From assembly GCA_010093815.1 (NCBI GenBank), contig ML996574.1: a stretch of DNA of 30,163 bases. One strand, 5' to 3'. The notes under the pieces are model-generated. The model was not told where the DNA came from, ran no database searches, and saw only the letters and a program-made list of their open reading frames with translations. How positions within the stretch are numbered: position 1 is the first letter of the stretch; each line of letters starts with the position of its first letter. This document shows, piece by piece, positions 1 through 30,163 of this stretch. The DNA is from Pseudovirgaria hyperparasitica. Taxonomy: Eukaryota. The position numbers and the translations under genes are program-made.

Positions 1-1
1 T

Positions 2-3633: not shown

Positions 3634-3726
3634 AAAAGGAATTCACAGCCTTAAGTACTAAGAGGCGTTTCTTGCATAGCGTTGAAATCCTAGCTTAGGT
3701 TAGAAACCGAAAGGTTCCTACCTAAG

Positions 3727-4484: not shown

Positions 4485-4605
4485 CGCGTAACTTATCTTT
4501 CTATCCTCCACCTTAACCTCATAGAGACTCTAGCTTAATAAGTTTTATCTATAATCTTAAATAGTTATTAATTCCTCCTTACTCTTATATCTATAGTATA
4601 TAAAG

Positions 4606-7600: not shown

Positions 7601-8784
7601 TAGATACTTTATCTAGGAAAGAATTAATTAGGCAAATACTAAGAATCACCGGCTGGATACGAAGATTCATAGAGATAATTATAAACCTATAATATCCTAA
7701 TAGCGTGACGAAAACCATGGAGCGTGCTATGAAAGTAGGCGTATAAGATATTAAAGAAATTATTAGAAGGTACTAGTAATATATCCAAGATAGCTTTAAG
7801 CACCTACTTACTATAAAAGAAGATAAACTATATAAAGCTTCTAACGGAAACGGAATACCCTTTAAAACGCTCTTCGACGAAGTAGCGGCCGCTAGTACTT
7901 ATAATTACTATTCTAAACTTAATAATATTTAGATGGAGATACTAGTTTCTAGAATTCCTACGCTAGAGCATTAGTTTAAGAAACTCCTAGAACGAAACGC
8001 CTAGGAGCTCTTAGACGACAAGGGATCGAGCTTAGATATTAAGCTACTCGAAGTTAGGGAATTAGATACTAATATAAATGACGACCTAATGGAAGTTATA
8101 CACGAAGAAGTAGTCTCGGATAAGTTTAAGAAACAAAGGTAGTAATTTGCAAAGCTCGCGAATACCGACGACTCGGAGTCGGTAAACGAATTCCATGATA
8201 TAGAAGACTCCTAAATGGAAGAAGCCGCTACTAAAACCATGCTACTAGTAGAAACTAATGCCGTAACCGACGTAGATATTAACGTTATTATAAGTGCCGT
8301 AGCCGACGTAGAGATTGACGTTATTACTAGTGCTACGGCCGCTACCGTCGTCGCAAGCGCCGCCGCGGCTATAAATATAGAAACCGTTATTACTCCGATA
8401 CCTATAGTTCCTACTCCTACTAAATCTACTTACTCGAATTAGCTAAGAAAAGACGACGATACGTACGAATGGTCTTAGATCCCTATAGCTATACTAATAC
8501 TATAAATAGATTAAATGAATATAAAAGAAATAAGAGTAATAAGAATAGTACTAAATCGTATATTCGAATACCCTAATAACTAATTCGAAGCTTTCCTCGA
8601 GGTTCACGATAGGCTTTAGACAGTTACTATAAATCTAAAGGTAATAGAAGCTATCCTTACGTAAGAACCGGAGAAACGTAGAGCTATATTATAATAATAC
8701 TATTAATACTTCTACCGACACTTGGGAAGTGACCTCGCGTAGTATCTACGCGAGTATCTAATTAAAGCAAGCCTACTAGAGTGA
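4606..8784 (+). pseudogene. Large extra ORF3 of element A (~1390 codons), unknown function, RIP-mutated
   Basis: A single frame (+1) runs from ATA (probable ATG) at 4606 to TGA at 8782-8784 with no frameshift or intron needed. Internal stops are TAA/TAG except one TGA at 6358. It has a basic N-terminus (KRGRKRKPK), A/T/P-rich linkers and in-frame 18-nt (~7552-7600) and 36-nt (~8260-8331) repeats. Track ORF 8215-8442 is in this frame. Confidence 0.75.
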
Positions 8785-8857
8785 CGGACTTTAGCATCGT
8801 TATAGAAGATATTATCGTTTCGAGTTGATTTATCGTTTCGATTTGATTAGGGGCAGC

Positions 8858-8995
8858 TATTACAGAAAGTGATAAGGAGACGAATAACGGTAAGAACTAT
8901 GGACTAAAGGTCCGATATAGATAGCCGTAGATTCTATGAAGTAGCTAGCAATTAATTTAATACTTGACTAAGACTTAACATCTCTGTCCTTAACA
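8858..8995 (+). repeat. 3' LTR of element A (~138 bp)
   Basis: Begins TATTAC (RIP of TGTTAC) just after AGGGGCAGC and ends CTTAACA. The next base resumes B integrase (AAGTCTATCT, matching element C at 16111). The partner LTR is outside the window. Confidence 0.7.
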
Positions 8996-11710
8996 AAGTC
9001 TATCTACGATAATAAGAATTAAATTATAACTTATTCTAAGTATCTCGCTTAGAGATAAGTTAACTATAAAATCTATAGTAATATCTTCCTATATAAAGAG
9101 GGGGACTAGTAGAGGCTATAAGTTCCTATATAGCTTATATCTAGATGCCTTTATTCTTTAATAAATCGGATAAGTAGCTATCTATTCTTTAATATACTTA
9201 GGTATATCTTCCTAAAAATAGTACTAATAAATTAAGCTTAGGGTGCGTATATACCCGAAATATCCTACTAGGTTAGCGTTATAGTATCGGCTAACTACGG
9301 TAAATCGTGCGTTACCCGTCGGTATATAGTACTTTCTATTATAGTAGAGTAAGCCGTCTATGAAGGTCTACTTATAGTCTACTTTAGTCTATAATAACCT
9401 ATCTTACTATATTTTATATAACTTTAAAACTATTAGGTCTATCTTTTATAGATCTATGATTAACTAGACGAGGTCTACTTAATATATATACTAGGTACTA
9501 TCGCCCTCCTTAATAGCGCTAATAAATAGCTTACTAGGGACTTCGGTACCGCGTCTTTAGTTACCGGCTTCGGTCTTATAAATTTAATTACTAGTATTGG
9601 CGTTAGTATCTTGCTAATTATCGGATAACTTATTATCTAACCTCGTCCTTAAGAGTTAGGCCTATAGCTACTCTAGGACCCTATAGCTACTATAAATCTA
9701 GGCGCCTTCTTTATAGTTAGATCTTCTTAATATTCTATTAGCTAGGTTTATACTTCTAGGTTAATAGTAGATTATAAAGTAGAAATTTATAAGCTACTTA
9801 GTCTATTAAATCTATCGATGATTTAAAACTATCGTACTTATAAACCCCTTTAAGTTATAGTAATTAGTTAGTAACTTAACGTTATATATAGTACCTTTAA
9901 GATAATATCGCTACTACTTAAACGACTCTACTATTACTAGTAGCTCTTAGTTATAAATAGTATATCTAGTCTTAACGTCGGCTATCTTACGCGAGAAGAA
10001 CGTAACTAGATACTATTAGATCTTTTTAGACTCTATTAGTCTAGGCTAGGAGAGTATACCCGAGATTATAAATTCTAATATATTAGTTTCGACGTAAATA
10101 GGTTTAGTTAGATCGAAGTATACTAGTAATAGGATAGTTATAAATGCTTCTTTAATCTTCTTAAAGGATATTCTTTTAACCTTAGTTAATTTAATAGGTT
10201 ATAATTTAATATTATACTATTTCTATCTACTACGGACCGTAATAGATAAGTTAGTAGTAGTAGTACGTGTATTAAGTAGTGCGGCTAAACGGGAGAAGTG
10301 TTTAATAAATTTTTAGTAGTAGTTAGCGAAGCTAATAAAGACACGTATATCTCGAACGGATTTTAGTTTAGGCTAGTCTATAATAGTAGTAACTCTATCT
10401 CTCTCTATAGTTATACCTTAATTAGTAATAACGAAGCTAAGAAAGTTAATATAGTTCTAATAGAACTTATATTTAGATAGCTTAATATATAGCTTATACT
10501 TTTCTAGTCTATCTAGAACTATACGTACGTACTAGATATACTCCTCCTCGTTATCTAAGAAGATAAGAATATTATCTAGATATATAATATATATCGTGTT
10601 AAGTAGGCCTACTAGCGCGTTATTAATATACGCTTAGAAGGTATCTAGCGTGTTAGTTAGTCTAAAAGAGACTATAGTATACTTAAAGTATCTATAACGG
10701 GTTCTAAAAGCCGTTTTCTATTCGTCGCCTTCCTTAATATAAAGGTAATAGTAGGTGTTACGTAGATTAAGCTTAGTAAAGATCTTTATATATTCTAGTC
10801 TATTAATAGACTCGGAGATAAGAGATAGTAGGTAATAATTCTTTCGCGTAATATTATTTAGGCTATAGTAGTTAATATATAGACGGAGACTCCTATCCTT
10901 CTTCTTTATAAAGAGGATTAGAGCTCCGGCTAGAGATATACTAGGCCTAATCTATTCTTATATAAGGTTCTTTTCGATATATTCTCGAAGGGCTTATAAC
11001 TTAGGTTCTAAAAGAGGGTAGATAGGTCTATATAGAGGTTACTAGCCGTCTTCAAGATTAATAGTAAGGTCAGTAGATTAGTATTAAGGTAGTTCAGAGG
11101 AATCGATCGCTAACGCGATATATTAGTATATTTTATACTAATATAGTAGGTTTTCATCTACTTTAATACTAAGCTTACTATTTTACATAAGTAAGAGTAC
11201 ATAGATAGTAGAGATCGCCTTCTCGTAATCTTTCTAGAATTATTCATTATTAATAAGCTATACTAGTTCCTATTAAGGTGGGTTTATACGCTAGCCAGCT
11301 ATCTTCTTAAGGAAGTCTAGTTTTAGGTTATATTTCTTAAGCCACAGTATACCTAGAATTATATTAAAGGGACTATCTACCACGATAAAGGTTAAGTAGT
11401 AGAGTTTCTATTTCCCTCCGCTATCCTAGATACTATATTTAATAGTATAGGTACTATATAACTTAATAGGACCGTCAATACCATAGAATATAGTATCTAT
11501 TAGAGCTTAGATATTAACATTAAGTTCTTATACTTATTAGATCAATATAACATTAGTAGCCAAACTACTATTAAGTATTATAGTCTAATATTATCCACGA
11601 GGGACCTTAATAGATCTAGTCTATAGTTTAATATACTATTTAGTAGATTACCCCTCTATTATAATCGCGTCTATAAGTCGCGAGGGTTTCTTATAGACTA
11701 TTAGTTTTTT
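8996..11710 (-). pseudogene. pol: Element B pol (protease, RT, RNase H, N-terminal integrase), truncated by the A insertion
   Basis: Minus strand gives GLL(D)TI(C)I(V)YLD(D)ILIF (~10560-10610) and ..ILIIVDRL at the 8996 junction. It aligns by eye with C 16111-18825. Confidence 0.92.
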
Positions 11711-12434
11711 ATATTCTATACTAGATAGTTAGGCGCGATATGTCCTAGCTACTAGTACTTATAGTATATAACTAGTTAGTTAGTTATATTAGTACTTAGT
11801 AGCTTCCCTAAACGGTACTTAGGTACTATATAGTCTATTCTACTATAGGTATAGTAAGTAACTTTAGGTTGTTTATATAAGTCGGTCCTTATATCTTAAT
11901 ATATTAATTAGTAGGGAGACCCACGATACGATCTACGTGGTTTTAAATTTAAGGTATAGTAGTAGCCTCGTAACGTCCCGCGAGATCTATTACTAAATCG
12001 GTTTTAGTTAGACGATTTTACATTAGATTAGATCGTTAGGGATAGTCGTGCACTAGCACGGCGTTAATTATTTATTATACGCTAGTATTACTCCGCGAGG
12101 TTTATAAGAGCTTAGAGGTCTATAGGGATTATTATTATAAGGTTAAGACGGTCCTTTATATTTAGGGTAAGAGACCGTTTAAAGTCGTCGTACTATTAAA
12201 TTATATAATCTTCTTCGGGTTCTCTCTAGAGGGGCCGAAGGTATTTAAGAAGTTATAATAGTAACTAATTATCTCGTTATTAAGTCTTAAAGATATAGCC
12301 CTAGGCCTAGTCGCGTCGTTTAGCCCTATCGCTAAAATATTAAAGGATAAATTTAGTAAACGTGTCCTAGTTATAGGCATCCTTAGAATATTTAATTCGG
12401 TGTACTATCTAACGTTCTAAAGGCGTCGGGTTAA
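11701..12434 (-). pseudogene. gag: Element B gag, C-terminal part with CCHC zinc knuckle
   Basis: De-RIP reading CYKCQQPGHIAPNC at ~11725-11768, followed by AAAAAAC-TAA at 11710-11701. Confidence 0.85.
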
Positions 12435-12672
12435 TGTAAAGAGTGAAGACGTGGGATAGTAGTCTAACAGTTTATAGAGAGATATAGGAATGTATTTATA
12501 GAGTAATCTCACTCTTATACGAGGTTGATTTCTAACGAGTAGGAATCGGTTTATACGGTCTACTTATATAGTAACCTCGCTTAACTTAGCTAACTTAACC
12601 TAGCTCTGGCCACTACGTGGCTACATGGATTAGAATAGTCTATATAGATCTATTATAGTTCCCGTCCTAATA
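12435..12672 (-). repeat. Element C 3' LTR
   Basis: TGTAAAGAGTG...CCCGTCCTAATA, a direct repeat of 20240-20477 differing by RIP-type transitions. Confidence 0.96.
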
Positions 12673-12689
12673 ATATCCTTCTTCTTTTT
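12673..12689 (-). promoter_or_regulatory. Polypurine tract of element C
   Basis: Minus strand AAAAAGAAGAAGGATAT immediately precedes the 3' LTR. Confidence 0.8.
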
Positions 12690-13016
12690 ATACTTCGCCC
12701 CGAAGTACTTAAGTATATATAATTCTAAGTCTCTATAATCTATCGTGTACCTATATATCCGTAACTAAGTTCCTATAACGTTATAACCATCCTTAATATA
12801 GGTGAACTCGAGATTCTAGTTTACTTTTACTAGTTTATGCACGCGCTTATCCCTTACTTTATAGCTACTACCTAGGACACGTAATTACTACTTTAGTCGA
12901 GCATATATTTAGCTTCGCTCGCCTTTAATTTTATTCTCTAGTATATCCACCTTACTCTTAAGGTAAGTCGTTAATTTATATACTATCTTCCCTAGTCTAG
13001 GTTTAGAAGGGTCTAT
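12673..13016 (-). pseudogene. Putative small sense ORF (~115 codons) upstream of the C 3' LTR
   Basis: ACC-ATA(ATG)-GAC start at 13016, reading MDPSKPRLGKIVYKLTTYLKSKVDILENKIKGERS...YFGAKYKKKKD with only TAA/TAG stops. No recognisable domain. Confidence 0.4.
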
Positions 13017-13151
13017 GGTAGTCTATTCTTATTAGAACCGGTCTAATATAACCTATTCGCGTTGTTACGGTCACTGATTTAGCTTTATTAATCGCCGTTA
13101 AGGGTGGACGAATATTCCTTCCTTAGATCTCTAGCTAACGTGTATATATAG

Positions 13152-14464
13152 ATATCTAATACTAGTTCTATCTCTAAGCCTACCTCCTTCTCTCGTAAGA
13201 CTTACTCTAAAGGCATCGCCGCCTCCCTAGCTACGCCGGCTAAGAAGCCTACCTATCGCGGTAGCACGAAGGCGCGCTCTAAGTCGGAGAAGAGAGTAGC
13301 TAGGGCTACTACTACTACTGCCTCTACTACTAATATAGCTACTAGTCGCTCTAATCTAGGTAATTCTAGTACTAAACTTATGGATAAAGTGGTTATAGGT
13401 TCTCCTCTCACTCTAAAGCGTACGCCGCCTACTCTACCTCCTCTAGAGGATAAAGAAGATCTCGTTATAGACGATGATCGTAAGCCCTCGCGCTTACCTA
13501 CGCCACCGCCTCGCCGCTCTTTCTTCCGGTCTAATATAGACTAATTTAGTCGCTCTAGGTCCTTTTAGGACCTTAATATTCGCTCTAAACCCTAGCCTAC
13601 TAATAATAAGGCCTAGGTCGCTAAGAATACTAAACCTAGTCGCGGTTTACGCTATAGAAAAACGGCGAACTACGGTTTAATATACTATAAGTATATTAAG
13701 AGCTATACGGCCGGCTCTAAATATCTCTTTCGCTCTAACTCTAGTATTAGCTACTACTCTACTAACCGCGACGGGCCTATACGCCCTATCTTTACTCTAC
13801 CTACCCGCTACCGCCGCTATACCGTGACTAGTAAGACTTATCTATAGGTAAGTATAATAGGCTATCTTAATCTAGTATAATCTAAAGTGGTCCGTACTAA
13901 TATATTCTTAGGTTCCTATACGTATATAAGATATATATAATAACCTTCGTGTCTATAAGACCCTCGGGGGTTCTTATAGCCGCCTATCTACTATATAGAG
14001 GGAGTTTAGGGAGCGCTATAAGCTCTTCCTAGAGGTTATTAAAGTATAAGTTACGAGTACGTTAATTGTTTTTAACACCTATTGATTTTTCTAGCCGCCG
14101 CGAGATCCCTAGCGCCTAGGCTACCTATTCTAGGGAGTCTATTCTAGCTATAGAGGCCGTAGAGAGGATTTACTCTATCTCCCCCTATCCGTCTTACGCT
14201 ACTAATAGATCTTATAAGAGGTCTACTATTTCTCCCTCTAAGTCGCCTCGTAAGAGGGTATATATTCCCTTCTAGATTATTCTAGATTATATTAGCTAAC
14301 TTTAGACCTAGTCGCTACGCTCCGGCGCTTAAGGCTCTTCCCTCTAGGCTCTAACGGATCGGGTTATTACTCTAGAGGCTAAGGTTATTATCCTCCGCCG
14401 CTATATCGTGTAGTTAGAGAGGACTATACTAGAGATTAGAACGGATAATAAGATAGAGGAGTAG
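13152..14464 (+). pseudogene. Antisense four-exon gene inside element C, Cys-rich Zn-cluster-like protein with C-terminal coiled coil (~383 aa de-RIPed)
   Basis: Exons 13152-13847, 13912-14045, 14095-14257 and 14306-14464 total 1152 nt and stay in frame. Introns: GTAAGT..TACTAAT..TTAG (64 nt), (G>A)TAAGT..CTAG (49 nt), GTATAT..GCTAAC..TTTAG (48 nt). De-RIP motif MCHKCVKSY..EC..RCRRCTVTGKTCLQ|VP. Confidence 0.8.
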
Positions 14465-15068
14465 CTCTATGGTTCTGGCTCTATGTGTTGGCTCTATGCC
14501 TAGCTCTATGTATTCTAGATCTACTATAGGTGGTGCGCGCCGGCTCTATTTACCTGGCTTTTATCTATTTTAGTCCTTTTTAGACCGTTTAGATACCCAT
14601 CGGCTAGTTTCTAGTAATTTAATTCTTAACTTAATGATATTATATGTGCGCTCGCTTAGCTTATGACTATTAGTTTCTATATTCTAATTTTCCTTGAGTT
14701 ACCTAAGTGTAGGCACCGTATATAAATTAGTTTATCTCTATGAATTCTATTAGAGTACCTAAACTAGTAGTCTAGTAGTTATTGGTTCGGGTACTCTAAC
14801 CTTTTATGTTTCGTATTAAGAGTTTAATTCTATAGTAGGGTACCTTTTTTTAGGTTCTTAGTCCCATGTTTTTCTCGTGTATAATAGTCTATATTAGTCT
14901 ATTCTAGACTCTTCTATATTATTCTATTATAGTATGTCGCGTCGCGTTTCTAAAATGGTTATTTACGCTTTCTTTGCGTCTAGTAACCGTATAATACTTA
15001 AATTATAGGGCTACTATATAGAGTTTTCCTAGTGCGCGTCTGGATTTCCTAGTTTAGTACTTCATTCT

Positions 15069-18000
15069 CTACGGTATCCTTCTTCTTTTTACGATAACCG
15101 CGACGTCGCTATACTTATATTAATAATATACTATTCTATATCTTTTACTTATACGTAGCCATTATAGAACTTAAGATATATACCGCTAGTTTCTAGGTGT
15201 TCTTATTCTTAGTATAGTTCTTCTAACGGATTCTATATTTCTAAACACCGTCTTCATCGATCCTATATTCGATAATATGGTCTACTTCGAACACGTCTAG
15301 TCTATCTTAGGGTATAATAGAGTGTAACTACACGTTCGTGCGGCTATACACGTTAGGTCGAAATCTTTTAAGTAGTAAGACGTGGAATATATTATAGATT
15401 CTTATATTACTTTCTAAGTCGAGCTCGTAGGCTCTTATACTAATGCGACGTTTGATTCGGAAGGGACTAGCCATTTTATAATTAAGCTTCTTATTTACTC
15501 GCGACGTTTATATATTATAGATATTAAGAAGAACCTCGTCGCCCTTCTCGTACGTCTAATCCTTAGCTAATCTATTATAGTACTTTATATACGAGTTATT
15601 TACTTATTAGATTATAGCGTGATAGTTATATATAGTTTCGAAGATTTTAATCGCTAATTCCTAAGCGTAGACGTTCACGTCTATTATTCGATTAAATTAG
15701 ACCGTCTAAGGCTTAAAACCTATCCTTAGACTACGTCCGAGGTTCGCCTAGAAAGGTGTAATATCTATTATACTATAACGACTATTATTATATATAAACT
15801 CTACTATGCTTAGTAGGGAGGCCTAGTCGTCCTACTCGAAATTATAGAATACGTGTAGGTAGGCCTCGAGCGTCTAGTTCTATCGCTCTATCTAGCTATC
15901 TATCTAAGGATAAAATACTATAGATATGTTCCTATTTATACTTACCATTTTATAGAATAACGTCTAGAATTTAGATATGAAGGTACTTCCTCGGTCCGTA
16001 ATAATCCTTTTTAGTATACTATAGACCTTAATAATCTCGTTCTAGAACACCTACGCTAGTTTTTTAGATGTAATCGTCTTCTACACCGGGATATACCTAG
16101 ATATCTTTATAAGTCTATCTATAATAATAAGAATAGAATTATAACTTATTCTAAGCATCTCGCTTAGAGATAAGTTAACTATAAAGTCTATAGTAATATC
16201 TTTCTATATAAAGAGGGGGGCTAAAAGAGGCTATAAATTCCTATATGGCTTATGCCTAGGGGCCTTCGTTCTTTAATAAATCGGATAAGTAGCTATCTAT
16301 TCTTCGACGTACTTGGGTATATCTTCCTAAAAATAGTACTAACGAATTAAGCTTAGGGTACGTATATACCTAAAGTATCCTACTAGGTTAGCGTCATAGT
16401 ATTAGCTAACTATATTAAATCGCGCGTTACCTATCGGTATATAGTACTTTCTATTATAGTAAAGTAAGCCGTCTATAAAGGTCTACTTATAGTCTACTTT
16501 AGTCCGTAATAACCTATCTTACTATATTTTATATAACTTTAAAACTATCGGGTCTATCTTCTATAGATCCACGATTAACTAGGCGAGGTTAATTAGATAT
16601 TCATGCTAGGCATTATCGCCCTTCCCGATAGCGCTAATAAACGGCCTACTAGGGACTTTAGTACCGCGTCTTTAGTTACCGGCTTCGGTCTTAGAGATTT
16701 AATTACTAGTATCGACGTTAGTATCTTACTAATCGCCTAATAACTTAAAATCTAACCTCATCCTTAAGAGTTGGGTCTATAGCTACTCTAGGACCCTATA
16801 GCTACTATAATTCTAGGCGCCTTCTTTATAGTTAGGTCTTCTTAATATTCTATTAGCTAGGTTTATACTTCTAGGTTAATAGTAGATTATAAAGTAAAAG
16901 TTCGTAAGCTACTTAGTCTATCGGACCTATTAACGGTTTAAAACCGTCGTGCTTATAAACCCCTTTAAGTTATGGTAATTAGTTAGTAACTCGACGTTAT
17001 ATATAGTATCTTTAAGATAATATCGCCACTATTTAAACGACTCTACTATTACTAGTAGCTCTTGGTTATAGATAGTATATCTAGTCTTAATATCGACTAT
17101 TTTGCGTGAGAAGAATATAACTAGATACTATTAGACCTTTTTAGACTTAGTTAGTCTAGGCTAGAAGAGAATACCTAAGATTATAAATCCTAACGCGTCG
17201 GTTTCGACGCGGATAGGTTTAGTTAGATCGAAGTGTACTAGTAATAGGGCAGTTATAAATGCCTCTTTAATTTTCTTAAAGGAGGCCCTTTCGCCTTCTA
17301 ATAATTCTATAGGCTACGATTTAATATTACGCTATTTCTATCTACCGCGGACTATAATAGACGAATCTATAGTAGTAGTACGCGCGTTAAGCGGTGCTAC
17401 TAGCCGGGAGAAATGCTTAATAAATTTTTAGTAGTAATTAGTGAATCCGATGAAGACACGTATATCTTAAACCGATTTTAGTTTAGGCTAGTCCACGATA
17501 GTAGCGACTCTATCCCTTTCTATAGTTATACCTTAATTAGTAATAACGAAGCTAAGGAAGTTAACGTGGTCCTAGTGGAACTTATATTTAGATAGCTTAA
17601 TATATAGCTTATATTTTTCTAGCCTATCTAGGACTACGCGTACGTGCTAGATATATTCTTCTTTATTATTAGAGAAGATAAGGATGTTATCGAGGTATAC
17701 GATGCACGTTATATCGAGTAGGCCTACTAGCGCGTTATTAATATACGCTTAGAAGGTTCCTAGCGCGTTAGTTAGTCTAAAAGGGACTACTATATACTTA
17801 AAGTATCTATAACGGGTTCTAAACGCCGTTTTCCACTTATCGCCCTTCTTAATATATAGGCGGTAGTAGACGTCGCGTAGATTAAGCTTAGTAAAGATCT
17901 TCATGCGCTCTAGTCTATTAATAGACTCGGAGATAAGAGGTAGTAGGTAATGATTCTTTCGTATAATATTATTTAGGCTATAGTAGTCGATATATAGATA

Positions 18001-18825
18001 GAGACTCCTATTCTTCTTCTTTATAAAGAGGATTAGAGCTCCGGCTAGGGATATACTAGGCCTAATCTATTCTTATATAAGGTTCTTTTTAATGTATTCT
18101 CGGAGGACCTATAGCTCGGGTTCTAATAGAGGGTATATGGGTCCGTGTAGGGGTTATTAACCGTCTTCGAGGTTAATAGTAAGGTCGGTAGGTTAGTATT
18201 AAGGTAATTCGGACGAGTCGATTACTAACGCGATATATTAGTATATTTTATACTAATATAGTAGGTTTTCGTCTACTTTAATACTAAGCTCTCTATTTTA
18301 AGTAAGTAAGAGGACGTAGATAGCGGAGATTGCCTTTTTATAGTTCTTCTAGAATTATTCGTCGTCGACTAGCTATACTAGGTTCTATTATAGTAGGTAT
18401 ATGCGCTAGCCAGCTATTTTCTAGATAAAGTCTAGTTTCGGGTTATATTTTTCGAGCTACGGTATACCGAGGATCATATTAAAGGGACTATCTACCACGA
18501 TAAAGGTTAAGTAATAGGGTTTCTACTTCCCCCCGCTATCCTAGATACTATATTTAATAGTGTAGGTACCCTACGATTTAATGGGACCATCGATACCATA
18601 GAAGGTAGCACCTATTAGTACTTAAATATCGACGTTAAGTTCTCGTGCTTATTAAGTCGATATAACGTTAGTAGCTAAACCGCTATTAAGTATTACGGTC
18701 TAATATTATCTATAAGGGACCTCGATAGGCCTAGCCTATAGTTTAATATACTAGTTAGCTAGTTATCCCTCTATTTTAGTTACGCCTACGAGTCGTGAGG
18801 GTTCCTTATAGATAGTTAGTTTTTT
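15069..18825 (-). pseudogene. pol: Element C pol (PR, RT, RNase H, IN, chromodomain)
   Basis: LLDITCIVYLD(D)ILIFS (~17670-17722), an integrase core, and the chromodomain DVFEVDHIIE..KYRIR(W)KNY..T(W)(E)(P) at ~15200-15297. The true stop is uncertain and may lie further on. Confidence 0.93.
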
Positions 18826-20222
18826 ATATTATATACCGGGTAGTTAGACGCGATGTGTCCTAGCTACTAGCACTTATAGTATATAACTAACTTAGTATCT
18901 ATATTAGTATTCGGTGGTTTCCCTAAGCGGCATTCGGGTACTATATGGCCTATCCTACTATAGGTGTAGTAGGTGACTTTAGGTCGTTTATACGAGTCGT
19001 TTCTCGCGTCTTAATATATCGACTAGTAGAAAGATCCGCGGTATAGGCCTCGTCTTCTCGAGTTCGTAGAGTGGTAGCGCCCACGAGGTGTTCCGTGCGA
19101 TCTATTACTAAACCGGTCCTCTTTAGACGATTTCGTATCGGATTAGATTAATAGGGATAGTCGTGCGCCTATATAACGTTAGTTATTTATTATACGCTAA
19201 TGTCATTCTATAAGATTCGCGAGTGCCTAAAGGTTAGTAGGGATAGACATTATAAGGTCGATACGTTCCTTTATACTTAGGTTAAGGGACCTTTTAAAGT
19301 CGTCGTATTATCGAACCATATAATCTTCCTCGGCTTCTCTCTAAAGAGATTAGAGGTATTTAAGGAGTTGTAACGGGGATTATCTCTCTCGCTATTAAGT
19401 CTTAAAGATATGGCTCTAAGTCTATTCGCGTCGCTCGGCTCTGTCGCCGAAGTATTAAAGAAGGAATTCGGTGAACGTGTCCTAGTTATACGTATCCTTA
19501 GGGTGTTTAATTCGATGTACTATCTAACGTTTAGATAGCGTTAGGTCTAGGTAGTTCTATACGAACCTAATCTTATTACTATCGTTCGTGAATAGGTAGA
19601 AGAATTAGCTATACTAGTAAGCCTATTCGTGAAAGCTCCTCCTGGTTTTACCGTCGAAGTAAGGTAGTTTCTTAGGCTAAGGTAACTAGAATAGTAATGG
19701 ACTTGGTTGGACTGTTTCGGCTTAAGTTAGTCTATATTAGTATAGGTTAGTTACTACTAGTACTAAAGCGCGTAGTGCGGCTTCGAGTCTAGCGGTTCGT
19801 TCTTACGCTTTGTCGAGTTTACGAAGTTACTACTCGAGCTAAGCCTAACGCTACCTCTCCGCGTATAGCTTAGTATATACATTATTATAAGGCGTAGTTA
19901 ACGTTAGTCGGTTCTAACGAATTAATTCGTTAACGTTAATAGGGTCTAGTCTTATAGTAAGGATAGGTCTAGTATAGTATAAACTAGACCGCGATGGAGT
20001 ATAATAGACTCCTTCCTTATTATCTAGGTAATCTTCCACGGTTATACGGAATGCCATACTAGTTATTAGTATAATAGCCTATAGGGTATACTTATCGGTA
20101 GAGGTGGTCGTAGGGAGACTATTCTCTTTATTTAGATTTAGAGAGAGTCTCTCGTATAAGGTAGTACCACGGGTATTATAGCGTATAGTAGAAGCTATCT
20201 CTATAAGCTACCGTCGTGCTAT
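18816..20222 (-). pseudogene. gag: Element C gag with CCHC zinc knuckle
   Basis: ATA(ATG)-GCA-CGA-CGG start 18 nt from the 5' LTR, knuckle CYKC..PGHIASNC at ~18840-18883, and AAAAAAC-TAA at 18825-18816. Confidence 0.88.
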
Positions 20223-20239
20223 ATAGAGAGGAATTAAAA

Positions 20240-20477
20240 TGTAAAGAGTAAAGACGTAGGATAGTAGTCTAATAGTTCATAGAGAGACATAGGAATGTAT
20301 TTATAGAGTAATCTTACTCTTATACAAGGTTGATTCCTAACGAGTAGGAATCGGTTTATGCGGTCTACTTATATAGTAACCTCGCTTAACTTAGCTGACT
20401 TAACCCAGCTCTGGCCACTACGTGGCTACATGGATTAGAATGGTCTATATAGGTCTATTGTGGTTCCCGTCCTAATA
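20240..20477 (-). repeat. Element C 5' LTR
   Basis: Direct repeat of 12435-12672, with a minus-strand TATATAAG box at 20375-20368. Confidence 0.96.
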
Positions 20478-21156
20478 GTTAAGGTAGTTCTAGACGAATC
20501 TAATTTTATCGCTATTATTTATAAATAGATAGAAGAATTAGCTATATTAGTAAGCCTATACGTGGAAACTCTTTCTACTTTTACTATTGAAGTAAGGTAG
20601 TTTCTTAGGTTAGAGTAATTGGGATAGTAGTAGACTAGAATGGATCGTTTTAGTTAGTATAGGTCTATATAAATATAGATTAGTTATTACTAGAACTAAA
20701 GCGCGTAATATAGCTTTAAGTCTCGTAGTATATTCTTAAGCTTTATCGAGTTCGCGTAGTTATTACTTAAGTTAAACCTATTATTACCTCTCTTCGTATA
20801 GTCTAGTATATACGTTATTATAAGATATAGTTAACGTTAGGCGATTCTAACGGATTAACTCGTTAACGTTAATAAGGTCTAGCCTTATATTAAGGTTAGA
20901 TCTAGTATAGTTTAAACTAGACCGAGATAGAGTATAATAGACTCTATCCTTATATTTCTATAATATCTTCTATAGTTATATAGAATATTATATAAGTTAT
21001 CGGTGCGATAGTCTATAAGGTATAGTTATTAGTAGGGGTAGTTATAGATAGACTATTCTCCTCGTTTAGGTTGGGAGAAGGTCTACTATAAGAGGCGGTA
21101 CTATGAGTATTATAATAAGTGGTTAGAGCTATTTTTATAAACTACCGTCGTGCTAT
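20478..21156 (-). pseudogene. gag: Element B gag, N-terminal part
   Basis: Colinear with C ~19545-20222, with the same ATA-GCA-CGA-CGG start at 21156. Confidence 0.88.
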
Positions 21157-21173
21157 ATAAAGAGAAATTAAAA

Positions 21174-21659
21174 TATAAGGATTATAGACGTAGAATAGTA
21201 GTCTAATAGGTCATAGAAGGATTCGGGAATATATTTAAAAGTGTAGTCTACTCTTCTAATAAGGTTAATTTCTAAAGAGTAGGAATTAAGTGTATACGGC
21301 CTACTTATATAGTGGTCTCGCTTATTCTAGCTAGCTTAACCTAGGTCTATGTCAGGGCTAACACCAGGATAGACTCAACTATAATACTATGGTCTAGTAC
21401 GGTCCGTAACAGGACGGACCCAGGGTGAGTTAGCTAGAATAAGCGAGACCACTATATAAGTAGGCCGCACACACTTGATTCCTACTCTTTAGGAATTAAC
21501 CTCGTTAGGAGAGTAGACTACCCTTTGAAATATATTCCCGAATCCTCCTATAACCTGTTAGACTACTATCCTACGTCTACAATCCTTATAGTCCACCTAT
21601 TACGGACCGTACTAGACTATAGTAGTCTAGTTAAGTCCATCCTAGTGTTAGCCCTAATA
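21174..21659 (-). repeat. Element B 5' LTR, split by an inverted solo LTR (pieces 21174-21349 and 21591-21659)
   Basis: TATAAGG(TGTAAGG)...GCCCTAATA. The two pieces together are the reverse complement of 21350-21590. Confidence 0.9.
21350..21590 (+). mobile_element. Solo LTR of the B family (241 bp), opposite orientation
   Basis: TGTCAGGGC...AATCCTTATA flanked by GTCTA (21345-21349) and GTCCA (21591-21595), a 5-bp TSD differing by one RIP change. Confidence 0.9.
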
Positions 21660-22669: not shown

Positions 22670-22897
22670 TGTAAGAATAGGGTTATTGGATAGTAGTATA
22701 GTTAGATAGAACAATAGGGTATATTCTATTATAGAACGAATTACTACCGAACCCTTTCGGTAGGAATCCGAGAGTATATACATAAAGGGACGCCGATCTA
22801 TCTAGCATGTAACTATTTACTACCCTTTACGTTACCTCCTAACCCTATTAGCTAAGGTATATATAGGTTAGGTCCTACCTAAGGCTAAGTCCTAATA
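22670..22897 (-). repeat. Element D 3' LTR
   Basis: TGTAAGAATAGG...GTCCTAATA, preceded on the minus strand by the PPT AGAGGGAAGGGATAAT. Confidence 0.95.
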
Positions 22898-23349
22898 ATT
22901 ATCCCTTCCCTCTAGGAAGCTACCCTTAGCGACCTAGATTATTATCTATCTCTATATCCCTATCCTAAGTCTCGTAAGATCTTAGTTATTCTCTACGCTT
23001 CGTCTTAGATACTTACTAATATTTACTAATCTAAGATTTATATAAGCGTTTTCCTAATAAACTAGATTTTATCTATCTTAACTTCTTATATAGGTAAGAT
23101 TACCTAATTAGGCCTAGCGTATCACGTAATATAATTAGGTAAGCCCGGGTACTACCTATATTAAAATCTTTTCTTAGAAATATTCCTTTCTTTAAAAAAC
23201 TTCTTAACTCTTTATAGAGTTTTTTAGATTATTAGATATATTACCCGATCCTTATAGATATAGATTTATATAATTTACTAATTTTTATACCGTCCTTAGC
23301 TAGTAATAATATAATTCATAATAATCCGTATAAATTAATAATAATTATA

Positions 23350-24333
23350 ATATAGTTTCCTAAAATCTCGACGCTCTAAAGTAATTAGCGCGGAAATAGG
23401 CGTCTTTAAATAATCCCTATCTCGTATATATTACCGATATATTAAAAGCTATTAATCTACCCTAACCTAGGCCGGGCTCTAATAATCTAGCTATATATTA
23501 TTATAGTTATCGCTTTCTATTATATATTACTTACGGTAGTACTAAATCTATAATATACGGTACTTATATAACTAAGAAGCGTTATTACTTATAGATATTT
23601 AAGTAAGTTCGAAGAACTTTACGTAGATTTACTTATATTAGTATAGATTACTACTAGGCCTCTAGTAACCCCTACTAATAAGGAGTATAGTACTACCGAT
23701 CGTAACGCCTTAGAGAAGGCTTTCTACGAGCTATATATCTAAGGTAAGGATTACGCCTAGGAGTACGATTCTAATAAGATCCGTAAGGATTTATCGGAAT
23801 CTACTATAGCTATTATTACCGCGATTACTAGGTAATATCATTTTTCTCGAATCGTTATAGATTCTTACTAATATATATTAATCTCTATAATAGTGCTAAA
23901 ATCTCTACTACTTCGGACTTCTTTCTATATACTAGCGATATTAAAATTCCTAGAAAAGGTTCTAGTAAAAAGGCTAAGGTTCCTTCCTCGCGTGTGCTAA
24001 AGAGCTATAAATTTAGGGAAGATAGCTCTAATCTAGAAGTTTCTATACTAAAGGTATGTGGTTCTATACCGATCGTTAAATCTTTTTACTAATTTATATA
24101 ATTCTTAGCGTGCCCACGCCGGTCCGTCCCTCTCCGTCCCGGGTCCCGCCGCTCTATAGGTTTCTATAGAGGAGTTTATAGCTATAAGGCGCGCTATATA
24201 GAATTTATAGCGTCGGAACGAAAGGCTAGAGACTTATATTATAAAGCTCTATACTATACTAAATAAGAACTAGCGGAAGGAATCAGATATAACCATCACG
24301 GTAATTAGTACTTCTACTCCTACTCCGACTTAA
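23350..24333 (+). pseudogene. Antisense spliced gene inside element D, putative homolog of the element C antisense gene
   Basis: De-RIP RMCHRCVKSY (23423-23452) and CGTC.TKKRHCLQ (23556-23594), with one +1 frameshift near 23460. Introns at ~23595-23646 (donor mutated or uncertain), 23832-23893 (GTAATA..TACTAAT..TAG) and 24054-24108 (GTATGT..TACTAAT..TTAG). The last exon is coiled-coil-like (EEF.A.RRA.(Q)NL(Q)RRNERLE). Start codon not defined. Confidence 0.72.
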
Positions 24334-24689
24334 TCGGTTTAGATCTATACTAATTAGTGCTAATATATCTCTTTTATCTAGCGTTTTTAGTTTTTCGGTT
24401 TTAATTTTAAAGCGATCTTACTTCTTCTAGATAGATTAGTACGAGTTTATATAGATCTATATAGATCTTTATATTTTCTTTTAGCTTTCTTAATTTTATC
24501 TTTCTTTAATAATAACTTCTTTAATCTCTTTAGTAATCTATACCGATCTATACTAATCGGCACCGATTTTCGATGTCCATTCCTCTTAGTAAATTATTTT
24601 TCTAAGTCTCTTTTTTAGTTAAATTTTTTAAAGTTCTAAGTTCGAACTTTCTAAGGAAGTTCCTTAATTCCTTAGAATATTTTAAAGAT

Positions 24690-27600
24690 CTATATCTCTT
24701 TCACCTTCTTCCTTTTAGACGGCCGTTCTTAGCGCTAAACTATACTAAAAAACGTCGAATCGCCGTACTTTAGTATAATTCTCTATGATTCCACGGCTTC
24801 CTTTACTAATCGCTACTTATATACTAACATCGCTACTTTACTAATGTTTATTATAGGTTTCTAAGTATCTTTATTAGGATTATATCCTCTCTAACGAATC
24901 TTATATAGCCACGTACTATCTTTAGCGCGTTACTAGCTAAGTATCTACTTAACTTTATAGATATCTATACCTTCTTACGTAACTACTTTATATAGTATCT
25001 ATTTAGAATGATCCGGTAATGATAAGGTATAAAATGGCTCGAGAAGCGTAATATAGAATATATTATATATCTTTAATATAGGAGGGAGTTATAACTCGTA
25101 CGCCTAGTTATTAATTACACGAGTAATCTTATATAGATCTATTATTATATAGTTAAGCTTCTTCTTTAGCCTAATACTACGAATATTCTTACTATTTAGT
25201 AAAACTTTATCCCTAATATTAAAGATTATAGGTTTTCTACCCTTATTATAGTGCGATTTACTATAATCTATAGTATCTTATAGTAACTTTATAACGCTTC
25301 TTTACGTTTGGAATAGTTCTATAGTAATTTCTATTACTTTAACGTTAGGTCGTTCTACTTTAAACTAAGTCCCTAAGAACTATATATTATGGTTCCGACC
25401 GAAGTTTACTTTAAATAGACTTATGTAGGTTAACGTATGTCGGCTGTTATTATACGCGAATTCCGCGATATAGACTAACCTTACCTAGTTATCCTACTTA
25501 TAGTTATAATATGCGCGTAAATACGCCTCGACTATCTAGTTCTACCGCTCCGTCTATCTATCTATTTATAGATGGAACGTAGTACTAAGTTTCTACTTAA
25601 TTCCCAGCGTATAGTAGAAATCCTTCTAAAATTTAGATGTTATCTACGGACCTCTATCCGAAACTATACCATTTAGTATACTATAGAGCCGAACTACGTC
25701 ACGGAGTAGTATATCTATAAGATCCGGTACTTAGATTATCTTCCTTATAGGGATATAGTATAATATCTTTATAAATCTATCTAGAACTACAAGTAAACTA
25801 TTATAAATATACCTAGAATACTCACTTAGGGGTAGATCTATGATAAAATCCATCGATAATTCCTTCTATGCCTCCTTTAGCATAGGTAATAGCCTTAATT
25901 CACTATATAGTAAGTGTCTATATACTTTCGTATGCTGGTAAACGTTATACGTTTTTACGTAGTCTTTTATATATTTATAAAGACCCGGCTAGTCGTACGT
26001 CCTTCGGATTAAATCGACTATCCTTATAACGCTAAAGTGCCCTACTAACGTATAATCGTACTATTCCCTTAAAACATTAATTTATAAGCCGTCTTCTAGC
26101 ACGTAGAGTCGGCCTTAGAAGTAGATTACGTCCGATCGTCGTTCCTACCTTAATAACTATAGTAGATCTATAGTGCTTCCTTTTATACTTATAACTTTCT
26201 TTACTAATATATTAGAATTCTAGGTAGATTTAATTAAGTCTTTAAGGGTTTTCTTAGTTTCTTAGACGTTTATTTAGATTACTTAATACCCGCTCTAATT
26301 CCCGCGGAGAATCGCCGAAAGTATCCTAGCTTCTAGCATTCTATTAGATAACTAGTCTTATAGTATCTAAAGTATAGCATAGTCTAAATTACACCGATTA
26401 TCTACGTTATTCTATAACGATTTCTTATAATCTTTACGCCGCGATAGAGGATTAGCTTTATTCTCTCTTCTAGCTTTATATAAGATTTTAAAGTTAAATA
26501 TTAATATCTACTTAGCCTAACGTACTTATTAGCGATTAAGGACCTTAGTCGATATAAAGTAACGTAGATTTACGTAATCTAATAATAATTCGATCTAATA
26601 TATAGAGCCTTCTAAATAATATCGCTATTGCTTAAAACTCTTAATAATTATAAGTAGTTCCTAGTCGTACGTGTTATAACACGTCTCTATATCCGCCATT
26701 TTATAGGAAAAGAAGGCGACCGGGTGCTATTACACCTTATCTTTCGTATCTTTATACGGTTAACTAATAATTCTAGTAATTATAAATTCTAACGCGTTAG
26801 TTTTAACCCGAATATGCTTCTTAGAATCGAAATACCTAAGAATCGGCGTAGTTATAAAGTAATTCTTTAACGATTGGAACGTATCTTACGCTTCCGGCGT
26901 TAACTATATCTTAACCGACTTAGCTTTACACTATACTCGCCTACCTATAGGGATTTTACCGCCATTCTCTATAAGTTTATTAAGCGGCGCCGTAATTCAT
27001 AAGAAGCCTATAATGAATTTACGATAATAGTTCACGAAACCTATAAACGTTCTAATTTAATATATAGTAGTAGGTTCTAGCTATTCTATGATGGTCTTTA
27101 TACGCTCCGGCTCTATTTTTAGGCCGCCATGTGTTATAATAAAGCCGAGAAACCCAACTTCTTATTAGTGAAACTCGTATTTAGATAATTTTACGTAGAG
27201 TTTATACTGCCTTAGACGATTTAGTACCGATTTCACGTGTTCTTTATAATTCTATATGCTATCGGAGTAAATTAGTATATTATCGAGATAAACTATGTAA
27301 ATCACGTTAAGTAATCCTACGAGTATAGTATTAATATATCCTTAGAACGCTCCTAGCGCATTTATTAGCCCGAATGATATAATAGTATACTTAAAATAAC
27401 TATATCTAGTCCGAAATGCGGTTTTCTACTTATCTCCGCGACGAATTTAAAGCCGGTAATATATATCTCGTAAATCTAGCTTCGTAAAGTACTTTACCTT
27501 TATTAATTAGTATAAAGATTTACTAACTAGCGGTAATAGATAACGATTCTTCTTAGTTACTATATTTAGTGCCCGATAGTCGACGTATAGATATAAACTT

Positions 27601-28460
27601 CCGTCTTTCTTCTTTACGAAGAGAATAGGTACGCCGGCTAATAATATACTATAACGTATCTAGCCTCTTTTAAGGTATTCTTTAATATATTTACGAAGAA
27701 CTTCGAGTTCTAGTCTTAAAAGTAGGTAAAGTAGGCTATAAGGGACGTCTACTCTCTCTTCGAGCTCGATCTTTAGCTTATACGGCCCGTGATTAGGGAG
27801 AAGTAACATATCTCCTACCGAAAACACATCCGTATACTACGAATATACGTTAGATAGTATATCTTCGCCCTGATTATTACTATTATTCTCGTCTTTATTA
27901 ATAATTAATAAGGACGTAAGATAGATTAGCAACGATCGGGTCCGCACGGTAAGGTTCCATGCCTCCTTACTAATAGTTACGACTTACTAGTATAATTTAC
28001 TACGGTATTGTCGGAACGTTAATGTCTCCTTCTAAAAATTAAGGATAGGGTTTAGGCGTCTAAGCTAAGGCATCCCTAGAATTATATTCTATTAGCTAAT
28101 ATTAGCCATGATAAATTTATTAGACATCTACTATTTTATTATCTTCGAGTTATGAACTTTATAATTTATTATAGCTTTACCTAAAGTTCTAACTTCATGT
28201 CTATTAACTATAATAGTTTAGCTAACTTTACCGAGATCGTACGATAATCTATACTCCTTTATAAGAATTAATAAAATATAGTTATCTTCTATACTAGTAT
28301 CCACGAGGGCCTATATAGTTTTATTACTATTTACTATAGGTAACGATACTTTTAGTAATATTAGGTCTTTACTCGCCGGAAGGCGCTACGGCTCCTCCTA
28401 AGTATATATAATTTAGCTAAGAACGCGGTTAGGTCTTATATACTAGTCTATTCTTTTTTT
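24690..28460 (-). pseudogene. pol: Element D pol (PR, RT, RNase H, IN, chromodomain)
   Basis: ALVDT(G) protease (~28295-28311), VYLD(D)ILIYS (~27262-27293), V(E)T(D)A(S)EF RNase H (~26785-26808), LSTTFH(P)(Q).D(G) integrase (~25560-25590), and chromodomain WLYKIR(W)RGY..DT(W)(E)P (~24845-24960). Confidence 0.93.
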
Positions 28461-29699
28461 AGATTCTTATAGTTAGGCGAAATATATCCTATTTCTCTAT
28501 ACTTATAGTAACGAAGTACGCTATAATCCTACTATTTTACGATAGGCGTTATATTTAAGCCTATGCCTTATTCTTTTCCGCGTTAAGAAGCACCGCCTCG
28601 ATTGTTTTAGTATCCTCTTAACGTGTTTCTACCCCGATTTACACTCTTCTAGCGCTAATTATAGTAAGGTTACTCTTAATCGAACGTATTTAATCGACCT
28701 CGTTTCTAACCCGTATAGGGTTCGTCGGTTTTACCTAGAGAGCCGCGTTCCTTAAGGATGCGGTAGTATTTATTAGCTTTCTCCTCTAATTCGTGTAGAT
28801 AGTTAAAACTTAATAATACTATTCCTAGTCTTTTATGGATTAACGGAAGTAGTACTTCGCGAAACTAGAATATACGAATATTTTCCTATAGCGTAGGGAT
28901 ATTATCCTATAGGTTTTAGAGGTATTATAGTAGTTAAGTAGGTGTCTAGTTCGGTCGTTATGCCACGCTTCTTAACTTAGTTAGTGCCTTTCTTTCACGT
29001 TCTCTATCCGTTCCGAGGGTGTTTAGTATAAATATAGCTAAATATTCCTAGGTTGTCGTAGATAGTAGCTGTACTTTCTTCTATTTCAGTAGAAAAGAGT
29101 AGAGGGTTGTTAAGGAAGTACTTTTCGTAGTCTCTCTTCTAGTCTTTCTACTCCTTTTAGTTCTTCTCTATAAATATAGTTAGGTCTTTAGGTTTCGGTA
29201 TACCTAGGGAAGGAGTAGGGTAAATCGGTAACGAAGCGGCCGGGTATACGGTGGATTATTACAACTCTAATAGTAGATGAACTAATTCCGCCTAAATTAG
29301 TATAGGAAGTCGTCCACCTACTATCGTTCGGCGTAGTTCTTTAAGAGACTCCTTAAGTTCTCGTCTCTTTACGAGGAGTTTCATGTATTCTACCTATTCT
29401 TTAAGGGTTTAAATCTCTCGAGCCTAATTCGCGACGTATTCCTAAAGTTCGGCAATGGTTTATTATAACATCTCGTGTGGCTCCGCCACGACTCGTTATC
29501 GGGCTTTATATTATTAGAAGTTACTCGGCGTATCTACTATTTCTTCGTCTGAAAGCTCCGTAATTTAGTCTAACATTTCTACTTCTTAGTTAGAAACGGC
29601 CGGGATTAATACCGATTATAGAGGATCCCTATTATTTAATATAGTATTACTTATCCCTATAGTAGATCGTGTCGACCTTCTCGGTTCTAGTTAGACTAT
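28448..29699 (-). pseudogene. gag: Element D gag with CCHC zinc knuckle
   Basis: De-RIP LRCYKCGE.GHISPNC at ~28468-28516, an A7G run before the TAG at 28450-28448, and a probable start MV(Q)PEPRRSTRS at 29699. Confidence 0.82.
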
Positions 29700-29733
29700 C
29701 TTAACTATAGTACTATATAGGGAGTAATTCGAA

Positions 29734-29961
29734 TATAAGAATAGGGTTATTAGATAGTAGTATAGTTAGATAGAATAATAGGGTGTATTCTATTATAGAA
29801 CGAATTACTACCAAACCCTTTCAGTAGAAATCCAAGAGTATATATATAAAGGGACGCCGATCTATCTAGCACGTGACTATTTACCGCCCTTCACGTCACC
29901 TTCTAACCCTGTTAGCTAAGGTACGTGTAGGTCGGGTCCTACCTAAGGCTAAGTCCTAACA
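29734..29961 (-). repeat. Element D 5' LTR
   Basis: Direct repeat of 22670-22897, ending in an intact CTAACA. Confidence 0.95.
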
Positions 29962-30163
29962 ATAGTACTAAAATCTCTACCACTTCGGACTTCTTTCTAT
30001 ATACTAGTAATATTAAAATTCCTAGAAAAGGTTCTAGTAAAAAGGCTAAGGTTCCTTCCTCGCGTATACTAAAGAGCTATAAATTTAGGGAAGATAGCTC
30101 TAATCTAGAAGTTTCTATACTAAAGGTATATGGTTCTATACCGATCGTTAAATCTTTTTACTA
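29962..30163 (-). mobile_element. Internal fragment of a second D-family copy (D'), within the antisense gene
   Basis: Near-identical direct repeat of 23890-24091, running off the window end. Confidence 0.92.

Follow-up and report, generated by a model that had tools for sequence, protein, structure and literature searches.

A likely remnant of a spliced antisense gene in a mutated Ty3/gypsy element of Pseudovirgaria hyperparasitica, and the antisense genes of its intact relatives

Do fungal Ty3/gypsy retrotransposons carry a further gene, read against gag-pol, in the stretch between pol and the 3′ long terminal repeat (LTR)? The question is raised by positions 23350-24333 of a 30,163-nt stretch of Pseudovirgaria hyperparasitica contig ML996574.1, referred to here as the window. 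These positions lie in element D, one of two elements (C and D) that are compared here, both heavily altered by repeat-induced point mutation (RIP). It is very likely that 23350-24333 is what RIP has left of a real gene, spliced and coding for a protein, the counterpart of a gene in element C and of genes in intact relatives. The earlier note on this DNA proposed that C and D carry the same antisense gene with matching architecture. Its observation is partly confirmed, as the feature is real and two details, the donor of intron 1 and an ATA start, are wrong; its interpretation is supported as essentially right.

The window is AT-rich, with a GC content of 29-42 %, and its RIP indices (TA/AT 1.66; (CA+TG)/(AC+GT) 0.24), judged against the usual cut-offs, show that RIP has been heavy. 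Among the differences listed between element copies in the genome reads there are 170-216 transitions per type versus 4-11 transversions. Both families are very abundant in the four sequencing runs compared, for example as 39,214 contig pieces in run X1. Pfam domains RVT_1, RT_RNaseH(_2), Integrase_H2C2, and SH3_Tf2-1 are present in one minus-strand frame of each of C and D, both of which have the Ty3/gypsy order of reverse transcriptase (RT), RNase H, and integrase. In D the matches are RVT_1 (8e-21), RT_RNaseH_2 (5e-16), Integrase_H2C2 (2e-7), and SH3_Tf2-1 (8e-9). Element D is thus a RIP-degraded Ty3/gypsy element on the minus strand. There was no Pfam match to the chromodomain (PF00385) in the RIPed translations of C or D; a chromodomain-like stretch is visible by eye at the end of the D pol (24792-24959), and PF00385 is present on nearly all of the best fungal and metagenome Pol matches to the pol of C.

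The feature (23351-24333) lies on the plus strand, antisense to gag-pol, within the spacer of D between pol and the polypurine tract (PPT) and 3′ LTR. The parts of the gene relic, as modelled here, are as follows.

23351-23602, plus strand: exon 1, with a provisional 5′ limit and a +1 frameshift needed near 23460-23471
23429-23452, plus strand: motif 1, within a 27-nt string at 23426-23452
23556-23594, plus strand: motif 2, Y-x2-Y-x6-Y-L-stop, with Tyr in place of Cys
23603-23657, plus strand: intron 1, GTAAGT...CTAG, 55 nt, phase 2
23658-23831, plus strand: exon 2, 174 nt, two TAA/TAG stops, otherwise open
23832-23893, plus strand: intron 2, GTAATA...TACTAAT...ATAG, 62 nt, phase 2
23894-24053, plus strand: exon 3, 160 nt, no stops in 53 codons
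24054-24108, plus strand: intron 3, GTATGT...TACTAAT...CTTAG, 55 nt, phase 0
24109-24333, plus strand: exon 4, ending in TAA, a heptad-like, coiled-coil-like helix with four internal TAG stops

The spliced reading has seven internal stops in 230 codons, all TAA or TAG. Its stop density of 0.037, versus 0.068-0.123 in the unspliced frames and 0.063 in the pol frame of D itself, is to be read in the knowledge that the splice model was picked so as to avoid stops. Exon 3 is present a second time (29966-30125), with transitions as the sole differences, and intron 3 is one of 11 matches to a strict intron pattern on both strands of the window. A mutated first donor, as had been suggested for D, is not needed, because the intact GTAAGT at 23603 joins exon 2 in frame; from the phase-0 donor at 23595 the sole acceptor (AG, 23656-23657) gives no in-frame join to exon 2. 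Of the intron phases 0, 2, 0 claimed for D, those of introns 2 and 3, both of which have good fungal splice signals, therefore stand, and intron 1 is better placed in phase 2. The D copy itself is unable to make a protein: in the part read it has at least 10 premature TAA/TAG codons and one frameshift, and all of its candidate Cys codons are Tyr codons.

The comparison partner is the gene in element C, for which the following parts are relevant.

13380-13847, plus strand: exon 1 of C, with ATG at 13380, motif 1 at 13683-13706, and motif 2 at 13809-13847
13848-13911, plus strand: intron 1 of C, GTAAGT...GTACTAAT...CTTAG, 64 nt, phase 0

Exon 1 of C has 156 codons and five stops, all TAA or TAG, including the TAG at the exon end. 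Two codons separate the third Tyr(Cys) of its motif 2 from intron 1 (Y-R-R-Y-x6-Y-L-stop, then GTAAGT). The claim that the second motif ends at intron 1 is therefore borne out in C, where the GTAAGT is in phase 0, and fails in D, where the donor at 23595 does not hold the frame. The frame of C is open for about 100 more codons upstream of the ATA, up to the ATG at 13380, and in the intact relatives roughly 24-65 codons precede the first Cys; ATA is therefore unlikely to be the start codon. Within the open frame of exon 1 there is also a well-formed intron-like stretch (13480-13549, GTAAGC...GACTAAT...TTTAG, 70 nt), use of which would place the upstream part of C in another frame.

As the earlier note had observed, the two strings are on the plus strand at the same place in C (13680-13706) and D (23426-23452), with pol on the minus strand in both. 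The elements are diverged, as was also claimed: their pol proteins have 41 % identity over 1052 residues, and the sole likeness of their LTRs is the terminus GTCCTAATAAT of the D LTR, which is also found at the end of the C LTR (12672). Six differences separate the 27-mers, three of them synonymous third positions and three within one K/R codon. In motif 2 just the Tyr(Cys), Leu, and stop(Gln) codons are kept. From the first Tyr codon of motif 1 to the start of motif 2 there are 127 nt in D and 126 nt in C, hence the need for the one frameshift in D, for which a site at about 23460 had been suggested. The pattern [CY]x[KR][CY]xK[SG][YC], composed after the two sites were known, has two occurrences in all six frames of the window, exactly at the C and D sites.

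Could such a likeness have arisen by chance? RIP makes TA-rich DNA with TAT/TAC, ATA, TAA, and TAG, from which Tyr 'zinc fingers', donors, and branch sites might be assembled in a D element that had no gene. A number of results weigh on this side. The 21 of 27 matching nucleotides are at background frequency, with three such clusters between C and D on the plus strand and 0-2 in each of 10 controls. In every frame 8-9 % of the codons are for Tyr or Cys, and 35 instances of the half motif are present in the window. Local protein scores of C against D (BLOSUM) are 35-47 on the plus strand versus 31-46 in the opposite-strand control, and RIP-saturated blastp of C and D gave noise. No significance was reached by RIP-tolerant DNA alignment of the C and D spacers; in a RIP-tolerant matrix scan C exon 1 was third of 1992 windows, and with a RIP-space hidden Markov model (HMM) C ranked 15th of 56. 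A loose architecture with a bare GT donor has two real matches versus a mean of 0.49 in 200 simulations, at least one being present in 37.5 % of these, and is not significant. Codon-usage log-odds trained on the RIPed pol frames could not separate the strands, the model being weak, at 0.04-0.05 bit per codon for true pol. When the RIPed rows were aligned with intact exon 1 sequences by MAFFT they were misplaced, as Tyr takes the place of Cys in them.

Searches beyond the two elements fall on the same side. With tblastn, the lowest E for all six spacer frames against 0.5 Mb of the relatives' loci was 0.014, in an unrelated location, and the plus frames of both spacers matched zero Pfam families up to E 10. 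Two word-index protein searches with the C exons returned 249 candidates for exon 1 and 12 for exons 3-4, none of which scored. Exhaustive phmmer with the C exons gave one match (E 7e-4), a 548-aa internally repetitive protein that was taken as spurious. The gene in C and D is, moreover, known from DNA sequence alone, and taken by itself the likeness of C to D appears to be no more than chance would give.

Chance is nevertheless an unlikely explanation for the gene relic. Both motifs are present with the same spacing, strand, and place in elements of such diverged pol, the differences in motif 1 are all synonymous or K/R, and motif 2 keeps just the codons listed above. The half motif followed by a strict donor is found twice in the 60,000 codon positions of the window, one of these being the site in C. 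Independently derived gene models of two intact relatives, L005 and L011, also show the intron phases that had been predicted beforehand. The earlier note had set a significant profile similarity between the C and D proteins as a test, and none was obtained in the alignments, the RIP-saturated blastp, or the RIP-space HMM. This test is judged to be too strict, because even the intact sisters L005 and L011 miss each other at E ≤ 0.01.

The relatives were reached through pol. The C pol matched intact Pol proteins on 6-8 kb metagenome contigs, and an alignment of ten metagenome Pol proteins (A1) led to 72 loci, given L-numbers, of which the 32 with at least 900 nt after pol were evaluable, ORFs (open reading frames) being sought within 2.5 kb. 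A C-x2-C-x5-8-C ORF is present on the antisense strand in 18 of the 32 and on the sense strand in two. By the layout of the Cys cluster and intron, the antisense genes fall into three types. In type B a single exon has a contiguous C-x2-C-x6-C-x9-11-C-x2-C-x6-C, with four invariant and two nearly invariant Cys; in type C an intron splits the two Cys halves; and in type A exon 1 contains all of the Cys, its two C-x2-C being 24-52 residues apart, and the intron comes directly after. Based on this layout, type A is the type of D.

All five type A loci (L003, L005, L007, L011, and L045) have the end of exon 1 exactly two codons beyond C-x2-C-x5-7-C, where a phase-0 donor GT[AG][AG]G[TC] follows. 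This is the same place and phase as intron 1 of C. Every position of motif 1 in C and D (Y-Y-K/R-Y-I-K-S-Y) agrees with the consensus of type A, C-x-[KRSA]-C-[LAFI]-[KNQV]-[GSHD]-[YFL], and the motif spacing is 42 residues in C and D versus 41 in L005 and L045. The 267-codon ORF of L005 is clean and runs over four exons; its three introns, in phases 0, 2, 0, measure 44, 47, and 51 nt. Its sister L011 likewise has four clean exons in phases 0, 2, 0, and the architecture read from RIPed DNA is therefore found in intact ORFs. Intron 2 in phase 2 and intron 3 in phase 0 are common to D, L005, and L011; exon 2, which is 164 nt in L005, 197 nt in L011, and 174 nt in D, ends in phase 2 in each. The last exon is helical or coiled-coil-like in L005 and L011, in agreement with the coiled-coil-like last exon that had been noted in D. 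The antisense products of the intact relatives are about 180-270 aa in length.

All-against-all clustering of the antisense ORFs was swamped by frames opposite pol. In exact look-ups, the relatives' antisense ORFs are called as unnamed or 'hypothetical' genes in JGI, ENA, and Logan. Antisense ORFs of three clusters (P0125, P0132, and P0145) are on many 1-2 kb Logan/ENA contigs without pol, and these contigs could represent antisense transcripts that were assembled. Several relatives of types B and C have a zinc-cluster exon that lacks a Met and is preceded by an antisense ORF rich in K/E/R heptads (antisense strand, L036 7375-8049, L056 12772-13365, L010 5296-5766, and L035 5179-5718); these genes may therefore also have an upstream coiled-coil exon.

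Is the gene old in this lineage, or was it captured once? In a quick IQ-TREE tree of RT/RNase H with 71 rows, C and D form one clade (support 100), sister (98) to L005+(L011,L039), within an 11-row clade (support 98) that contains all five type A loci. All five members of the 11-row clade with enough 3′ sequence bear the antisense gene. Across the RT tree the gene types need four changes, versus 12.5 with shuffled labels.

The antisense gene evolves fast: L007 and L045 are on short RT branches and their antisense proteins are 26-33 % identical (E 1e-10 to 1e-16). Little protein likeness among C, D, and the relatives is therefore to be expected and weighs little against homology. For the antisense frame of type B and C loci, six closer pairs gave a ratio of nonsynonymous to synonymous substitution rates (dN/dS) of 0.11-0.36 and a seventh, more distant pair one of 0.60; two further pairs were saturated. 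This check on un-RIPed copies, which had also been proposed, points to purifying selection, and the gene appears to be conserved in related elements to a degree implying selection, as judged from subtypes other than that of C and D. Some points count the other way: the RIP-biased composition of the window rows was flagged and may inflate the C-D grouping, the L005 antisense protein matches no other locus at E ≤ 0.01, L011 included, and the dN/dS values are drawn from types B and C rather than from the C and D elements or type A. On the RT clade, the shared intron 1, the 0, 2, 0 sisters, and dN/dS below 1, the proposal that this would be an old, vertically inherited, and selected third gene, not a one-off capture, holds up.

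The short islands to which C-D conservation is confined might also be cis-acting signals of the 3′ untranslated region (packaging, export, or plus-strand priming) and not protein-coding. In favour of this reading, the region is adjacent to the PPT, and signals of this type are located in that part of the transcript. The pattern of conservation, however, follows the codons of the antisense strand, and the long intact antisense ORFs of the relatives open only once GT-AG introns are removed and have dN/dS below 1 in frame. Signals of this kind are extremely unlikely to account for the feature.

A further alternative depends on the structure of the two elements, the parts of which are as follows.

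22672-29963, minus strand: element D, with a 230-bp LTR at both ends
22672-22901, minus strand: 3′ LTR of D, 230 bp, a 90 % repeat of 29736-29963, with its TG...CA ends decayed to TA
22902-22913, minus strand: PPT of D, TCCCTTCCCTCT on the plus strand, immediately inside the LTR
24792-29733, minus strand: gag-pol of D, with RT, RNase H, integrase, SH3_Tf2-1, and the chromodomain-like end
29734-30163, minus strand: the next D LTR (29734-29963), directly joined to a second copy of 23889-24091
about 12673-19548, minus strand: internal region of element C, with the pol domains
12433-12672: truncated LTR of C, a 240-bp remnant, about 690 bp having been lost
12675-12688: PPT of C, TCCTTCTTCTTTTT, in the same arrangement as in D
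19549-20481: LTR of C, 933 bp

The stretch from the end of pol (about 24792 in D and 15142 in C) to the PPT is unusually long, about 1.9 kb in D and 2.4 kb in C. In the second D copy the LTR is joined directly to the equivalent of 23889 (at 29963/29964), and 989 bp with the PPT, exons 1-2, and most of intron 2 are absent, with ATAAT microhomology at both edges. Where the two D copies overlap, over 203 nt, there are seven differences, all of which are transitions. The 989 bp (22902-23888) could therefore be read as a foreign insertion, either a C-like fragment or a captured host gene, into a D family that never owned the gene; the segment is flanked by a 4-5 bp repeat (ATAAT), in the manner of a target-site duplication. 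Against this, the segment starts with a PPT exactly at the LTR edge, as in C, which makes the long form the functional arrangement and the short form a deletion between microhomologies. Exons 3-4, outside the segment, continue the same gene, and a nucleotide comparison of the segment with C and the rest of the window gave no match. An insertion is very improbable, and the remnant is best read as that of a gene belonging to D.

Other features of the window were also observed. The stretch 29734-30163 resembles a tandem D-LTR-D array whose second member is internally deleted. Element C too is repeated in tandem, with a partial copy at 8996-12416 (83 % identity to 16111-19531) next to the LTR remnant at 12433-12672. 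Two C-type LTRs lie head to tail (19549-20481 and 20482-21348, 77 % identical), and after them come an LTR fragment in inverted orientation (21422-21588) and a short inverted repeat (21354-21413 / 21596-21655). A third Ty3/gypsy element is on the plus strand at 1-8995, with RVT_1, RNase H, and integrase within about 600-2460. After it comes a very long plus frame with few stops (about 4750-8600) and without a Pfam match, possibly a large additional ORF on the sense strand or else a RIPed gene of unrelated origin. Run X3, from another sample of the same species label, has a 2840-nt contig of depth about 2600, the end of which matches the D LTR (22764-22859). This contig runs on as un-RIPed sequence and hints at an unmutated, perhaps expressed, D-like copy elsewhere in the species.

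How does such a gene compare with known systems? To our knowledge, extra genes in LTR retrotransposons are rare and almost all of their functions are unknown. An antisense gene of a fungal element, brtn of Boty, was reportedly published by Zhao et al. in 2011 (Virology 417:248). Citing papers describe brtn, in Botrytis cinerea and Sclerotinia, as lying antisense in the interval from pol to the 3′ LTR of a fungal chromovirus (PMC8365987, PMC7264820, PMC4227169, PMC5987419). Like the D gene, and according to these descriptions, it is an extra gene of a chromodomain-bearing fungal Ty3/gypsy element, in the same place and antisense, and missed by annotation. Unlike Boty, the D and C copies are RIP-dead and belong to two further families, and the likeness is one of position and orientation alone. 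No match named BRTN was returned by protein searches with the C pol and the relatives' antisense ORFs. In plants, the excerpts available describe antisense ORFs between pol and the 3′ LTR of Ty3/gypsy elements, for example in Grande1, RIRE2, Retand, and PvRetro13 (PMC7264820, PMC11963269). According to these descriptions, on which the comparison is based, they share the place and orientation of the D gene and are conserved within families; they differ in belonging mostly to non-chromovirus plant lineages, and the excerpts make no mention of a zinc-cluster domain.

Antisense genes in this position are therefore already known from a fungal chromovirus, and the D gene is a further case. What could be new is the breadth of the family, the conserved intron, and the possible Zn2Cys6 nature of the product. 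A literature search linking antisense genes of fungal gypsy retrotransposons to binuclear clusters found none among the papers listed, which is no proof of the link being unpublished.

The candidate function of the product is suggested mainly by the type B relatives. An AlphaFold2 model of a type B protein has a predicted local distance difference test score (pLDDT) of 78 and consists of a small Cys domain and one 87-residue helix. When this model was searched with Foldseek, the top 10 matches were all Zn2Cys6 DNA-binding domains, although with E 0.37-7.2. It superposes on GAL4 with a root-mean-square deviation (rmsd) of 1.7 over 34 aa and on Pho7 with 2.0 over 35 aa; VIA gave Z 2.1-2.8, and for HAP1, over about 66 aa, the rmsd is 8-9. 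Searched against the PDB, a profile built from 11 type B proteins has six Zn2Cys6 structures among 19 weak matches (E 0.3-6.6), and in the ESM Atlas a type B protein adjoins unnamed Ascomycota clusters with a score of 0.93. These models weakly suggest that the relatives' proteins are Zn2Cys6-like with a long helix.

Six-Cys spacing and a long helix are shared by the type B relatives with Gal4-type Zn2Cys6 factors (GAL4, PPR1, PUT3, HAP1, and Pho7). The host factors have a large regulatory domain, which the relatives' proteins lack, and the Cys spacing in the subtype of D is much wider than in Gal4-type clusters. In C and D the layout is recorded by Tyr codons alone (Y-x2-Y ... Y-x2-Y-x6-Y, with about 38 residues between the halves).

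Several results speak against a zinc-cluster reading. Among 15 relatives' ORFs, Pfam Zn_clus (PF00172) is matched best with 17.0 bits (E 0.006) and next with E 0.057, the other 13 having no match; all Zn2Cys6 matches are thus below the usual thresholds, and the Pfam gathering threshold of 21 bits is not reached. When type A exon 1 was compared with the type B profile by hhalign, the 13-column Cys motif alone was aligned, with a probability of 2.3 %, and the AlphaFold2 model of type A exon 1 (pLDDT 44) is not usable. As the functional leads stem from type B and the homology of types A and B is unproven, the Gal4-like reading is a lead and not a result for the subtype of D.

HBZ of human T-cell leukaemia virus type 1 (HTLV-1) is a spliced antisense gene at the 3′ end of a retroelement that encodes a small, dimerising transcription factor of DNA-binding type, in that case a basic leucine zipper (bZIP) protein of a human retrovirus. 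It is unrelated in sequence to the relatives' proteins, and the comparison would be one of functional analogy only. The product in the intact relatives has an N-terminal six-cysteine cluster resembling the Gal4-type Zn2Cys6 domain, then a long helix or coiled coil and, in many cases, a tail that is acidic. Following the analogy, transcription of the gene would start at the 3′ end of the element and run against the sense transcript. Such a protein would enter the nucleus, probably dimerise via the helix, bind DNA, and modulate transcription of the element, with a mode of action much like that of the antisense bZIP factor HBZ for HTLV-1. Put forward tentatively, a large clade of ascomycete chromoviruses may have long kept a spliced antisense gene for a minimal Gal4-like factor, composed of a Zn2Cys6-type cluster, a dimerising helix, and an acidic tail and acting on its own LTR or on host promoters. 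This would be a fungal counterpart of HBZ, a family whose nature and breadth have gone unrecognised and of which brtn is perhaps one member.

A dead, RIPed copy has in this case pointed to intact relatives, in which an antisense, intron-bearing gene appears to be regular across a whole clade of fungal gypsy elements and under purifying selection. For genome annotation, the 1.5-2.5 kb 'spacer' after pol in such elements is not to be taken as non-coding. If the product is a DNA-binding factor, as its weak likeness to Zn2Cys6 proteins suggests, the gene would give experimental access to the way in which fungal retrotransposons control expression, be it their own or that of the host.

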